A DNA stretch of 10,802 nt. Origin: a virus. Taxonomy: Duplodnaviria; Heunggongvirae; Uroviricota; Caudoviricetes. Location of the stretch: positions 1-10,802 of the IMG/VR virus record IMGVR_UViG_2698536392_000023; one strand, given 5' to 3'. This document shows, piece after piece, positions 4,254 through 10,802 of the stretch; position 1 is the first letter of the stretch; each line of letters begins with the position of its first letter. The translations under genes were made by a program, and so were the position numbers. Below the pieces are notes generated by a model that was not told the DNA's origin, searched no databases, and saw only the letters and a list, made by a program, of their open reading frames with translations.

Positions 4254-4409
4254 TTACTCCTCAGGTTCGTAAGCTGTGAAGACAGCGACCTCCGTCTGGC
4301 CGGTTCGGATTCGTACCTCGCAGAGGTCTTTCCTCGTTACCAGTGCCGTCACTATGACGGTAATACAGATGACGATCAGGGCGATTAACATCGCCTTTTG
4401 CTGCTTCAT
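4254..4409 (-). CDS. hokD: Hok/Gef-family type I toxin (51 aa), closest in my memory to HokD/RelF
   Basis: MKQQKAMLIALIVICITVIVTALVTRKDLCEVRIRTGQTEVAVFTAYEPEE; SD AAGGAG upstream of ATG at 4409. The ORF-track entry 4254..4466 is the same frame extended to an upstream ATG. Confidence 0.85.
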   Translation of the reverse strand: MKQQKAMLIALIVICITVIVTALVTRKDLCEVRIRTGQTEVAVFTAYEPEE

Positions 4410-4422
4410 AGCCTGCTTCTCC

Positions 4423-4451
4423 TTGCCTTTCGGCGCGTAAGAGGCTAACCT
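4423..4451 (+). promoter_or_regulatory. Candidate promoter for a sok-like antisense RNA
   Basis: Plus-strand TTGCCT (4423-4428), 17-nt spacer, TAACCT (4446-4451); predicted transcript runs antisense across the upstream in-frame ATG (4466) and its GAGG SD. Confidence 0.35.
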
Positions 4452-4584
4452 ACATGTGTCTAGCATGAAATTGGCCTCAGATTAATGTTAGGCGTCTTGC
4501 AGGACGCGTAATGTTAACTGGGGCTTTTCTCTGTCTGCCTTACGGTGGCATGCCCGAGGCAGACAGCCTCAAGCACCCGCAGCA

Positions 4585-8569: not shown

Positions 8570-8995
8570 TCAATGCACTGCCACAGCATTTCCTGCCGGG
8601 CCACCACGGTTCATCTGATTGAAACCGGCGATTGCCACCGCGACAAAATCATCAGCGTCTCTCACCAGTCGCTCCCGCGTCTCCACCAGCTCCCGAAAAT
8701 AAGCTGAACTGTGGCTGCGCATTCTGGCCACCAGCAAAGGTGGCATTGCCTTTTCGATCGCTGGTAACAACGCCTGAATTTTTTCAACTGCATCAGGGGT
8801 GTCTTTCTCTACCCAGCGGAAAATTTTCTGGGTATTGCGAGCCAGGGCTTCCGGATGGCTGTCGTCATACAGTTCCGGGAACGTCATACCCAACTCAAAA
8901 TAAGCCTGGGTTATTCCAGCTGCTGGAACTTTCTCACCATCAGGATATGCCCAGGCATTCATCGCCATGCGGATGTGCTCATGTTTGATTTTCAT
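8570..8995 (-). CDS. ydaT: YdaT-like protein (cII position; family reported as toxic in Rac prophage), 141 aa
   Basis: Size and position downstream of the Cro-like gene match Rac ydaT; N-terminus MKIKHEHI; SD AGAGG upstream; 17-nt overlap with the ydaS-like gene. Family call is from memory. Confidence 0.55.
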   Translation of the reverse strand: MKIKHEHIRMAMNAWAYPDGEKVPAAGITQAYFELGMTFPELYDDSHPEALARNTQKIFRWVEKDTPDAVEKIQALLPAIEKAMPPLLVARMRSHSSAYFRELVETRERLVRDADDFVAVAIAGFNQMNRGGPAGNAVAVH

Positions 8996-9302
8996 GAATC
9001 ATTTGCCTCTTGATGCTTCGGGTATGATCGTTTTCGTCATTTGGTTGCTTCATCGACATATTCTGCGAATAACATGACGAGCGTCGTAAGTATGTCCAAT
9101 CAACATCAGGACGAAGTTCTTCACACAGGACACCACCTTTTGTTGCTCGTTCAATCGCAGGACATCTCTCAGCAGGCAACTGACGTACACCTTTGATCCA
9201 TTGATTTACGCTTGGAGGAGATACACCTAAAAGCCTAGCCATTGCTGATTGCCCACCGACAACAGCACAAGCTCGTTTGAATGAATAGTTATCTTTTTTC
9301 AT
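8979..9302 (-). CDS. ydaS: YdaS-like Cro-type HTH protein, about 107 aa
   Basis: HTH segment QSAMARLLGVSPPSVNQWIKG; ATG at 9302 with GGAG SD (the ORF track begins at an upstream GTG, 9323); divergent from the repressor across an operator region. Confidence 0.65.
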   Translation of the reverse strand: MKKDNYSFKRACAVVGGQSAMARLLGVSPPSVNQWIKGVRQLPAERCPAIERATKGGVLCEELRPDVDWTYLRRSSCYSQNMSMKQPNDENDHTRSIKRQMIHENQT

Positions 9303-9329
9303 CGAATGAACTCCAAAAAACACACAATA

Positions 9330-9359
9330 ATATTAGGCTTAGCCTAATGTGATTATCAA
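9330..9359 (-). promoter_or_regulatory. PR-like promoter for the ydaS-ydaT-replication operon
   Basis: Minus-strand TTGATA (plus 9354-9359), 18-nt spacer, TAATAT (plus 9330-9335); spacer contains operator O1. Confidence 0.45.
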
Positions 9360-9398
9360 TAGGCTATGCCTAACGCTTCGAGAGTAGGGATTGCCTAA
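9333..9398. promoter_or_regulatory. OR-like operator cluster: three TTAGGC-N3-GCCTAA palindromes spaced 25-26 bp centre to centre
   Basis: O1 TTAGGCTTAGCCTAA 9333-9347 (perfect); O2 ATAGGCTATGCCTAA 9359-9373; O3 TAGGGATTGCCTAA 9385-9398 (one half-site imperfect). Confidence 0.7.
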
Positions 9399-9426
9399 CG
9401 CGATGCGCATAGGAGACTATTAAGCA

Positions 9427-9903
9427 ATGCTTAGTGGTAAAGACTTAGGCCGAGCGATAGAGCAGGCCATTAACAAAAAAATTGCATCAGGAGCCGTCAA
9501 ATCAAAGGCGGAAATCGCACGTCATTTCAAAGTCCAACCACCATCAATCCATGACTGGATTAAGAAAGGTTCGATAAGTAAAGACAAACTTCCAGAACTA
9601 TGGCGTTTCTTTTCTGATGTGGTTGGTCCAGAGCATTGGGGGCTTAACGAATACCCCATACCAACCCCATCCACTTCAGATACAAAAAGTGAACTTTTAG
9701 ACATAAACAGCCTTTATCAAGCCGCCTCTGATGAAAAAAGAGCAATTGTGGCTTTCCTCTTATCTGGAAATGCTACGGAGCCTAGTTGGGTTGATCATGA
9801 CGTTCGCGCCTACATTGCCGCAATGGAAATGAAGGTAGCTAACTATCTGAAAAATCAAGAATCAAAACGGAAAAGCCAGAACATCACCAAGACAGGAACT
9901 TAA
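9427..9903 (+). CDS. racR: RacR-like prophage repressor (cI-position HTH protein), 158 aa
   Basis: Divergent from the Cro-like gene across operators; HTH segment SKAEIARHFKVQPPSIHDWIKKG; AGGAG SD; size matches RacR. Family call is from memory. Confidence 0.65.
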   Translation: MLSGKDLGRAIEQAINKKIASGAVKSKAEIARHFKVQPPSIHDWIKKGSISKDKLPELWRFFSDVVGPEHWGLNEYPIPTPSTSDTKSELLDINSLYQAASDEKRAIVAFLLSGNATEPSWVDHDVRAYIAAMEMKVANYLKNQESKRKSQNITKTGT

Positions 9904-9997
9904 ACTTATATGGTCCGACGGGAAATTCCTAGTTCCCGTTAGTTAACTCCTACTACCTCTCCCACAAACCATCACCTATTAGGTCGCACCCAAACCA

Positions 9998-10036
9998 TTA
10001 GGCATAGCCTACTGACAAGCAATTAGGCATTTCCTA
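9998..10036. promoter_or_regulatory. OL-like operators: two further TTAGGC-N3-(G/T)CCTA palindromes downstream of the repressor gene
   Basis: TTAGGCATAGCCTA 9998-10011 and TTAGGCATTTCCTA 10023-10036; centres 25 bp apart. Confidence 0.6.
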
Positions 10037-10040
10037 TAGT
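10012..10040 (+). promoter_or_regulatory. PL-like sigma70 promoter overlapping the OL operators
   Basis: CTGACA (10012-10017), 17-nt spacer, TATAGT (10035-10040). Confidence 0.5.
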
Positions 10041-10244
10041 TTTCCCATACCAACCCATCCCGTCCCACACAATACAGGGCAATACCTAGAGTTACCCGGC
10101 AGTGGTCAGGGATTAAGTAGCCAGCCCGAGGCGTATGAACATGACGGCGGGAACACTTTGTATAACAGCGCAGCAGGTTTTTAGTTCCGCTACCCCAGCG
10201 TTAAGGGGAAATGAGGTCAGCATGGATACTATCGAGCTCCGATC

Positions 10245-10802
10245 CCTAAAGTAACCAGAGCCAGGCTCACCATGGAAGACTGGAAAAAAATTTACAATGC
10301 AACGCCTGAAAAACACTTTATCCGTAACGCAATGCTTCTTGCGATTGTTACTGGTCAGCGCCGTGATGACATTTGCCATATGCGTTTTTCAGATGTGTGG
10401 AACGAACACCTGCATATTACCCAGGGAAAAACTGGAATGCGTCTGGCGTTACCGCTGACGCTACGCTGTGATGCCATTGGGATATCGCTAAAAGAAGTGA
10501 TTGATGGATGCAGGGACAGAATATTGAGTCCATACCTGATTCATAGTCGGCACCAAAAACAACCAAAACCAATGAGTAAAGACAACCTGAGCGATTACTT
10601 TGCCAAAGCGCGGGAGCTGGCTGGAATAATTCCACCAGCAGGAAAAACTCCGCCAACATTTCATGAACAACGTTCTCTATCAGAACGGCTGTACCGTGCA
10701 CAGGGTATCGATACAAAAACATTACTGGGACATAAAGTCCAGGCAACCACCGATCGTTATAACGATACTCGTGGTCAGGAATGGGTTAAATTGGTTGTTT
10801 GA
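10245..10802 (+). pseudogene. Lambda-type tyrosine integrase, C-terminal catalytic domain only (N-terminal about 175 aa missing)
   Basis: Colinear with the lambda Int C-terminus (TGQRR, HEQRSLSERLY, LLGHK, DRYNDTRGQEW, stop at 10802); in-frame stop at 10212-10214 and no Int-like sequence upstream in any frame. Confidence 0.8.

Follow-up and report, generated by a model that had tools for sequence, protein, structure and literature searches.

The region around racR in the window, i.e. the whole stretch of 10,802 nucleotides analysed here, is with a probability of roughly 80% the immunity region of a Rac-like lambdoid prophage that is wired like lambda, in which RacR would occupy the palindromes of two operator clusters, one on each side of its own gene. 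The right cluster, between racR and the divergent ydaS-like gene, is already published for the Escherichia coli K-12 prophage Rac on the basis of gel shift and DNase I footprint, while the left cluster, beyond the 3' end of racR, would be an addition to the Rac model with a layout that is ordinary for lambda-like phages. E. coli K-12 has few essential transcription factors, of which RacR is one, and three or four laboratories currently study it. Models of RacR action have so far dealt with the racR-ydaS intergenic sites only, which leaves the control of kilR, recET, xisR and intR unexplained. Two conserved RacR operators placed over a near-consensus promoter immediately beyond racR would provide a direct mechanism for the control of the left arm, and with the left cluster the RacR octamer can be read in another way. 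The gain would be a refinement of a known lambda-type circuit and not a new principle.

The repressor and its palindromes

The chromosome of E. coli 2013C-4830 matches positions 8900-10802 of the window with 100% identity, and the matching region constitutes there the left end of a lambdoid prophage of about 41 kb that lies between potB and potC and carries the effector gene espK. The sequence-only reading of a RacR-type repressor beside a divergent ydaS is borne out by the gene products. Indeed, the window RacR scores 246.8 bits against the NCBIfam RacR equivalog NF049929, for a cutoff of 200, and shares 92% of identity with K-12 RacR, and the divergent gene encodes a protein with matches to the YdaS_toxin and P22_Cro families (Table 1); this ydaS-like gene is the first of the rightward early operon (ydaS-ydaT-replication genes). 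RacR is composed of an N-terminal helix-turn-helix domain (approximately residues 1-73) followed by an oligomerisation domain that is not of the Peptidase_S24 type. No Pfam match to Peptidase_S24, the domain of the LexA/CI-type self-cleaving repressors, was found in the window RacR, and RecA-assisted cleavage of a repressor devoid of this domain is not expected.

The window was scanned for the pattern TTAGGC-N3-GCCTAA with up to two or up to three mismatches. At up to two mismatches, the scan returns exactly the five copies proposed from the sequence alone, namely right operators 1, 2 and 3 and left operators 2 and 1 (Table 1), for an expectation of 0.32 sites in shuffled sequence and with at least five sites in 0 of 200 shuffles. 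Their start-to-start spacings are 26 and 25 bp in the right cluster and 25 bp in the left one, and the clusters are 639-690 bp apart, in agreement with the 25-26 bp and approximately 650 bp claimed beforehand. At up to three mismatches, eight matches are found in the window, every one inside 9333-10037; the additional ones are right operator 4, a weak third left site and 9445-9459, which is really a TTAGGC half-site only. The proposed count of three right and two left sites stands at up to two mismatches, but a better count is four right sites and a half-site, with two to three left sites. Furthermore, within the prophage the palindrome is exclusive to this region, since no other site with up to two mismatches was found in 49 kb comprising the whole prophage and its flanks; none was found either in 25 kb around K-12 Rac.

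Table 1. Features of the racR region. Coordinates refer to the window; mismatches are counted against TTAGGC-N3-GCCTAA.
Feature	Position	Strand	Sequence or evidence	Remarks
ydaT-like gene	8570-8995	-		
ydaS-like gene, Cro-type helix-turn-helix protein	8979-9302	-	Pfam YdaS_toxin 4.6e-30, P22_Cro 1.2e-8	
PR-type ydaS-ydaT promoter	9330-9359	-	TTGATA-18-TAATAT	promoter scan
Right operator 1	9333-9347		TTAGGCTTAGCCTAA	perfect palindrome; overlaps first 3 bases of ydaS promoter -10 box
Right operator 2	9359-9373		ATAGGCTATGCCTAA	1 mismatch; abuts/overlaps ydaS promoter -35 box
Right operator 3	9384-9398		GTAGGGATTGCCTAA	2 mismatches; racR promoter region
Right operator 4	9420-9434		TTAAGCAATGCTTAG	3 mismatches; spans racR start codon and leaderless racR promoter
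racR, 158-aa repressor	9427-9903	+	NCBIfam RacR equivalog	PGAP name racR
Hairpin	9917-9940	+	ACGGGAA-8 nt-TTCCCGT	weak T-containing tail; just past racR stop; centroid fold -10.9 kcal/mol
Weak third left site (OL3-like)	9979-9993		TTAGGTCGCACCCAA	3 mismatches; 19 bp from left operator 2
Left operator 2 (first left site)	9998-10012		TTAGGCATAGCCTAC	1 mismatch; last base is first base of -35 box
PL-type early-left promoter	10012-10040	+	CTGACA-17-TATAGT	promoter scan; predicted start near 10047
Left operator 1 (second left site)	10023-10037		TTAGGCATTTCCTAT	2 mismatches; fills promoter spacer, overlaps first 3 bases of -10
Early-left transcript leader	10046-10222	+		about 175 nt, C-rich 5' part; common to heteroimmune lambdoid phages
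Integrase gene 3' fragment, pseudogene	10233-10802	+	PGAP: incomplete tyrosine recombinase; Pfam Phage_integrase 6.4e-19	now fused downstream of left promoter
Deletion junction	10238-10239		pairwise comparison with E. coli O103 RM8385	

That the left matches arose by chance, or are a functionless duplicate of the ydaS promoter, is hardly credible. The two promoters are near copies of each other, as duplication would give, and right operator 2, read on the opposite strand, differs from left operator 2 at a single base of 15, the window-specific T-to-C at 10012, the two being identical in most related loci, E. coli O103 RM8385 (L002) included. However, with uniform base frequencies only 0.027 sites (0.03 when rounded) with up to two mismatches are expected per 705 bp, which corresponds to a Poisson probability of about 1e-10 for at least five sites, and this probability stays below 1e-6 when every 705-bp window of a 5-Mb genome is allowed for. 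Moreover, chance and relic duplication are both rejected by the conservation of the sites from Escherichia to Achromobacter in DNA that is otherwise unalignable, with variation only in the central 3 bases.

Known and predicted operators over the two outward promoters

A promoter scan of 9200-10300 yields only two sigma-70-like promoters, both overlapped by palindromes. racR is divergent from the cro-like ydaS, with multiple operators over PR- and PRM-type promoters, and a second cluster with the same operator sequence lies over an outward early-left promoter beyond racR. The lambda OL/OR geometry that had been put forward is recovered: an outward promoter of the same direction follows the repressor gene, which is flanked at its other end by a divergent cro-like gene.

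The right cluster has been characterized in K-12. Three variant GCCTAA/TTAGGC repeats were described in the 123-bp racR-ydaS intergenic region, on which RacR forms three gel-shift complexes and is enriched in ChIP-qPCR (Krishnamurthi et al. 2017, PMC5700373). The position of the ydaS promoter (TTGACA / TAATAT) is known from primer extension and mutagenesis (Wisniewska et al. 2022, PMC9638921), and the same study mapped three racR promoters, obtained a DNase I footprint of RacR with the operator consensus (T/A)TAGGC-n3-GCCTA(T/A) and located a further TTAGGC half-site inside the racR coding sequence; four inverted repeats were given in later work of the same group (PMC11014345). The window carries repeats of this consensus together with the divergent ydaS-ydaT operon, and its right cluster matches the published layout base for base, with sites at 0, 1, 2 and 3 mismatches and the half-site. 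Right operator 1 is the counterpart of K-12 Rac O1, which is protected from DNase I at the lowest RacR concentration, and right operator 4 is the published operator whose spacer overlaps the racR ATG (PMC9638921). Right operator 3 is an extra site of Escherichia-type loci only, the distant homologues having three right sites and not four. Right operator 4, on the other hand, is present in every distant homologue, 7 bp upstream of the racR start and with one or two mismatches.

The near-consensus promoter CTGACA-N17-TATAGT that the left pair had been said to overlap is indeed found by the promoter scan, and it reads away from racR on the same strand as this gene. Both outward promoters are built in the same register. 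On the minus strand, the ydaS promoter reads TTAGGCATAGCCTAT/TGATAA-n5-TTAGGCTAAGCCTAA/TATTAT, with the last base of one operator within the -35 box and the next operator filling the spacer and reaching three bases into the -10 box. The register of the left module, TTAGGCATAGCCTAC/TGACAA-n4-TTAGGCATTTCCTAT/AGT (also written TTAGGCnnnGCCTAT/TGACA-n5-TTAGGCnnnGCCTAA/TAT), is equal to that of the ydaS promoter.

Conservation of the left pair was examined at loci of RacR homologues, 12 of which were collected with a single genome for each species and 80 in IMG/VR, identities being those of the repressor to the window RacR and distances being measured start to start from the first right site to the first site of the left pair. 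The pair occurs at 664-667 bp in Escherichia-type loci, including E. ruysiae (91-100% identity), at 639 bp in Mixta (L008, 64%), at 648 bp in a Pseudomonadota metagenome bin (L009, 58%), at 654 bp in Proteus mirabilis (L010, 61%), and at 1,917 and 2,602 bp in Achromobacter (L014 and L012; 77-78% over the DNA-binding domain only). The loci of Klebsiella (L011), Nitrosomonas (L013) and Aeromonas (L015), whose repressors are 63-69% identical over the matched part, showed no left pair within 3 kb. Every Escherichia locus long enough to reach the region has the pair at 25-bp spacing, the racR 3' end together with the left module is present in 489 of 5,426 complete E. coli genomes, and the phage record vB_EcoS-683R6 displays the complete four-plus-three site layout. 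In K-12 Rac, too, the three left sites are found together with TTGACA-17-TATAGT, at about 170 nt upstream of ydaG. The K-12 module lies at about 1419620-1419700 of NC_000913.3, and its transcript is predicted to start some 7 nt past TATAGT, near 1,419,619 on the minus strand. An alignment of the loci anchored at the first left site brings together the operators, TTGACA and a TAnnnT -10 box only, the flanks being unrelated; in Achromobacter L012 the left promoter is TTGACA-17-TAATAT.

Within the operators, it is the half-sites that are retained. The half-sites of left operator 2 are invariant across loci and its central 3 bases vary (ATA, GCA, GTA, AAA, GTC, AAC), and the centre of right operator 1 varies too (e.g. 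TTA, GAC, TGC, CTA, ATA, TTG, GGC) between fixed half-sites, as expected of a dimer that contacts the half-sites only. Left operator 1 has no more than one mismatch in Mixta, the L009 metagenome bin, Proteus and Achromobacter L012. The weak third left site, with two mismatches in most E. coli copies, belongs to Escherichia-type loci only and is absent from the Mixta, Proteus and Achromobacter loci, and its role as an operator is uncertain. The DNA-binding domain of RacR is strongly conserved, with residues 39-56 invariant across nine homologues, which fits the identical half-sites found across loci. A search for specificity co-variation, i.e. for a homologue in which a changed right half-site could be compared with the left one, found the DNA-binding domain and the half-sites identical in every informative locus, the Aeromonas locus being too degenerate. 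In the Achromobacter homologues (362-366 aa), the RacR-like DNA-binding domain is joined to a Peptidase_S24 domain (2.4e-14 and 6.7e-15), so that one operator code serves two repressor architectures.

The left operators also coincide with a boundary of homology. A search of phage records found positions 10046-10238 in many lambdoid phages devoid of racR (e.g. Tritos, Evi and mEp460), and the homology with these heteroimmune phages begins at 10046-10056, immediately past the -10 box of the left promoter. Tritos has AGTAC-type repeats in the equivalent left positions and also between its own CI and Cro genes. The position of this edge and the different repeats of Tritos indicate that the left operators and promoter travel with racR, operators and repressor gene forming, as judged by sequence comparison, one immunity cassette.

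The K-12 RacR papers that we found describe sites between and just inside racR and ydaS, and none mentions sites downstream of racR. Apart from the older kil/sbcA papers, which were outside the literature covered, no published description of the RacR left cluster and left promoter was found. In Rac, recET is derepressed by the classical sbcA mutations, and a left promoter under repressor control may already figure in older work on this prophage.

Proposed repression of both arms and possible looping

In the mechanism that we propose, RacR dimers would recognise the 15-bp TTAGGC-N3-GCCTAA palindrome via the conserved N-terminal helix-turn-helix domain. Bound to right sites 1 and 2, RacR would lie over the ydaS promoter at its -10 and -35 boxes and keep ydaS, ydaT and the replication genes off, and the weaker right sites 3 and 4, placed over the racR promoters and start codon, would allow autoregulation. 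Left sites 2 and 1 would be used in the same register over the second strong promoter, which reads away from racR and in intact relatives would drive DUF1391/ydaG-ydaF, dicB or kilR, a recET-type exonuclease, xis and int; RacR bound to these left sites would block RNA polymerase directly. The architecture shared with the ydaS promoter, the conservation across genera and the cassette edge suggest that RacR, through left operators 2 and 1, most likely represses the early-left promoter directly.

The left arm of K-12 Rac comprises, on the strand of the left promoter, ydaG, ydaF, kilS, kilR, ydaE, racC, recE, recT, ralR, xisR and intR. When RacR is lowered in K-12, ydaF, ydaG, ydaE and racC are upregulated about 40-fold and ydaC, kilR and ralA more than 70-fold (PMC6765115), and xisR and intR, both called 'far away' from the repressor in one paper, about 100-fold (PMC11014345 for the fold change). 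The same gene set rises upon CRISPRi silencing of racR (bioRxiv 10.64898/2026.09.06.749655). The responsible promoter and operators are not named in these three reports, and the induction of the left arm when RacR falls fits direct repression at the left promoter. In principle, this induction might also come about indirectly, via YdaS or YdaT.

Alternatively, the main user of the left sites would be YdaS, the Cro-like protein, and not RacR, which we regard as improbable. In favor of this alternative, PaaR2 and YdaS both regulate the left promoter of CP-933P (PMC8630535), and RacR and YdaS have been described as competitors for the intergenic operators (PMC11014345). However, the left half-sites equal those footprinted by RacR (PMC9638921), and across genera and two repressor architectures the half-sites track the invariant DNA-binding domain of RacR. 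Furthermore, both proteins are likely users of these sites, so that binding by YdaS is not an exclusive alternative to repression by RacR.

Whether the two clusters communicate bears on how the RacR octamer is understood. Purified K-12 RacR behaves as an octamer in size-exclusion chromatography, with 151 kDa versus 148 kDa predicted for the octamer, and its discoverers placed this octamer on the four right sites, which lie side by side, rather than in a loop (PMC11014345). The ability of K-12 RacR to form octamers makes looping plausible, and by analogy with lambda we tentatively consider, at somewhat less than even odds, a loop bridging the clusters over approximately 0.65 kb. Neither the helical phase nor a fixed distance between clusters gave a common signal across the loci (639-667 bp, 1.9 kb, 2.6 kb), and the varying right-left distance neither supports nor excludes looping. 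It is a nearly even prospect that the left sites are instead purely local operators, the octamer sitting entirely on the four adjacent right sites without any communication between clusters. The lack of a conserved phase or distance speaks for such a local arrangement, as does the fact that the distant homologues have only three right and two left sites. Yet there are analogies in favor of a loop: octamer-forming repressors with two operator clusters do loop, as is classically seen with lambda CI, the PaaR2 protein of CP-933P likewise forms octamers and possesses two clusters (PMC8630535), and the weak sites nearest racR on both sides may be likened to the loop-dependent OR3 and OL3 of lambda.

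A broader reading would have RacR both shut the early-left promoter and loop with the right cluster through its unrelated non-S24 oligomerisation domain, the same DNA-binding domain and operator code being reused on the S24 repressors of Achromobacter with loop-sized gaps of 1.9-2.6 kb. This combination is less likely than not. If RacR does form a loop, the published model of an octamer on four adjacent sites would be wrong, and a different protein scaffold would have acquired long-range cooperative repression independently.

The likeness to lambda CI lies in a repressor gene between two operator clusters, in sites 1 and 2 placed over the -10 and -35 boxes of the outward lytic promoters, in weaker sites nearest the repressor gene, in a leaderless repressor mRNA and in an octameric repressor. 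The Rac-type system differs by its 15-bp operator with 6-bp half-sites and 25-26 bp spacing, by a cluster distance of 0.65 kb versus 2.3 kb in lambda and by the absence of a Peptidase_S24 domain in RacR; the lambda loop is made by a CI octamer, whereas that of RacR is our inference. PaaR2/YdaS of CP-933P (PR933P, PRM933P, PL933P, OL1-3) resembles the present system in its ydaS-ydaT right arm, its octameric repressor and the -35 and -10 boxes of its left promoter, which are copies of those of the right promoter, with left regulation seen in reporter assays (PMC8630535). Its operators, on the other hand, are 18-bp palindromes with the consensus GTTTAGTAA, unlike the RacR sites, and its repressor, unlike racR, is co-transcribed with a toxin-antitoxin pair located between repressor and left promoter (PMC8630535).

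The left arm in the window and in intact relatives

In the intact relative RM8385, the genes that come after the left promoter are DUF1391, dicB, ydfD, one for an exonuclease, xis and int. Compared with this locus, the window lacks 4,356 bp, which contain dicB, ydfD, the exonuclease gene and xis together with the remainder of the DUF1391 gene and the 5' part of int, and the junction at 10238/10239 joins a point five codons into the DUF1391 gene, the first of the left operon, to the middle of int. With xis and half of int lost, excision of the prophage by its own machinery is probably impossible. Furthermore, the first base of the -35 box is changed from T to C in the window (CTGACA), whereas TTGACA is found in 16 of the 16 other Escherichia-type variants, and the left-promoter allele of the window is present in 4 of 5,426 genomes. 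The left promoter is thus, from its sequence, vestigial in this copy, which combines an apparent -35 down-mutation with the deletion of 4.4 kb of its operon. Given the two mismatches of left operator 1 and the missing operon, its regulatory output in the window should be minimal.

It is an open bet, with even chances on both sides, whether the left cluster of the window is a non-functional relic that regulates nothing of consequence. The deletion beginning five codons inside the first left-operon gene and the rare -35 allele, unique to the window among these variants, are in favor of a relic, and several further genes of the prophage are pseudogenes. However, the half-sites are intact save for the outermost base of left operator 2, and the left sites would still matter if looping aids the repression of ydaS. 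In addition, decay of this kind concerns the window copy only and not the left module in general, for which direct repression by RacR is the preferred reading.

The prophage shares with K-12 Rac the RacR family, the right sites, their consensus, the architecture of the ydaS promoter and the left sites, which in K-12 face ydaG; it differs by its location at potB/potC and by the dicB-type left arm of its intact relatives, in place of a kilR-type one, this arm being lost in the window. The DicA/DicC system of Qin (dicCp, dicBp) is similar in having a short repressor devoid of a cleavage domain, followed immediately by the repressed promoter of a DUF1391-dicF-dicB-ydfD operon (bioRxiv 10.1101/2023.04.14.536235), and the last approximately 50 nt of the Qin leader are the same as in the window. 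DicA, however, belongs to a different repressor family and its operator sequence is different from that of RacR.

Two elements flanking the left module were considered as RNA structures. A structured RNA in the leader at 10046-10222 was rejected, since Rfam yields no matching family, either at its gathering threshold or with E up to 5, shuffled sequence folds more strongly than the leader (z = +1.77) and the alignment fold, for which some alignment coordinates were off, has almost no covariation. The hairpin just past racR does not pass the terminator scan, and the assignment of the end of the racR transcript to it is therefore only tentative; its K-12 counterpart, ACGGAA/TTCCGT, has one pair fewer.

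RacR-type operators in distant loci

The repressors of two Achromobacter loci (L012 and L014), 362-366 aa long, carry the RacR DNA-binding domain fused to a Peptidase_S24 domain of the LexA/CI type, the DNA-binding part being 77-78% identical to that of RacR. Predicted TTAGGC-N3-GCCTAA operators, the same as at the racR loci, make up both clusters here, and the 1.9-2.6 kb that separate the clusters hold additional genes. An S24-like GESM motif is likewise present in the Aeromonas protein (L015; 65% identical).

Operator number varies across loci. Right sites number three in the distant homologues (L008-L014; positions -67, -42 and -7 from the start codon) and four in Escherichia-type loci (-94, -68, -43 and -7); one right operator unit has therefore been gained or lost between them. 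In the same comparison, the third left site is found only in Escherichia.

The left transcript and a deletion in its operon

Directly 3' of the racR stop codon stands a hairpin that is kept in K-12 with one pair fewer and at which the racR transcript may end, ahead of the left promoter. The left-transcript leader is strongly conserved and common to the heteroimmune phages Tritos, Evi and mEp460, and partly to Qin. It is C-rich and G-poor over its first ~35 nt and could act as a Rho-loading or antitermination site; neither an unusual structure nor an Rfam family was found for this segment.

Comparison with the intact relative L002 (E. coli O103 RM8385) indicates that 4,356 bp, corresponding to L002 7340-11695, are absent at window positions 10238-10239. 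This deletion removed most of the early-left operon, namely DUF1391 apart from its start, together with dicB, ydfD, the exonuclease gene and xis as well as the 5' portion of int, and joined the 3' part of int to the left promoter and leader. Without xis and a complete int, the prophage is therefore probably unable to excise by its own machinery. Position 10012 belongs both to the -35 box, as its first base, and to left operator 2, as its outermost one; it is C in the window versus T in 16/16 other Escherichia-type variants. Among 5,426 genomes, just 4 combine this C with the deletion, and relaxed selection may lie behind the combination.

Coordinates of features (window unless a locus is named)
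Feature	Position	Remark
Hairpin	9917-9940
Left-transcript leader	10046-10222	~175 nt
YdaT box match	8985-9002	- strand
S24-fused repressor gene, Achromobacter L012	3001-4101
S24-fused repressor gene, Achromobacter L014	3001-4089

Other elements of the window

At the ydaT start codon, ATGATTCATGAAAATCAA matches the published YdaT box, ATGATT-n6-AATCAA (PMC11879457). Rfam hits place the sok antitoxin RNA adjoining hokD at 4404-4578 (116.9 bits), the sRNA STnc100 at 481-671 (138 bits) and, at 751-997, three tRNA genes that follow the Q-type antiterminator gene.
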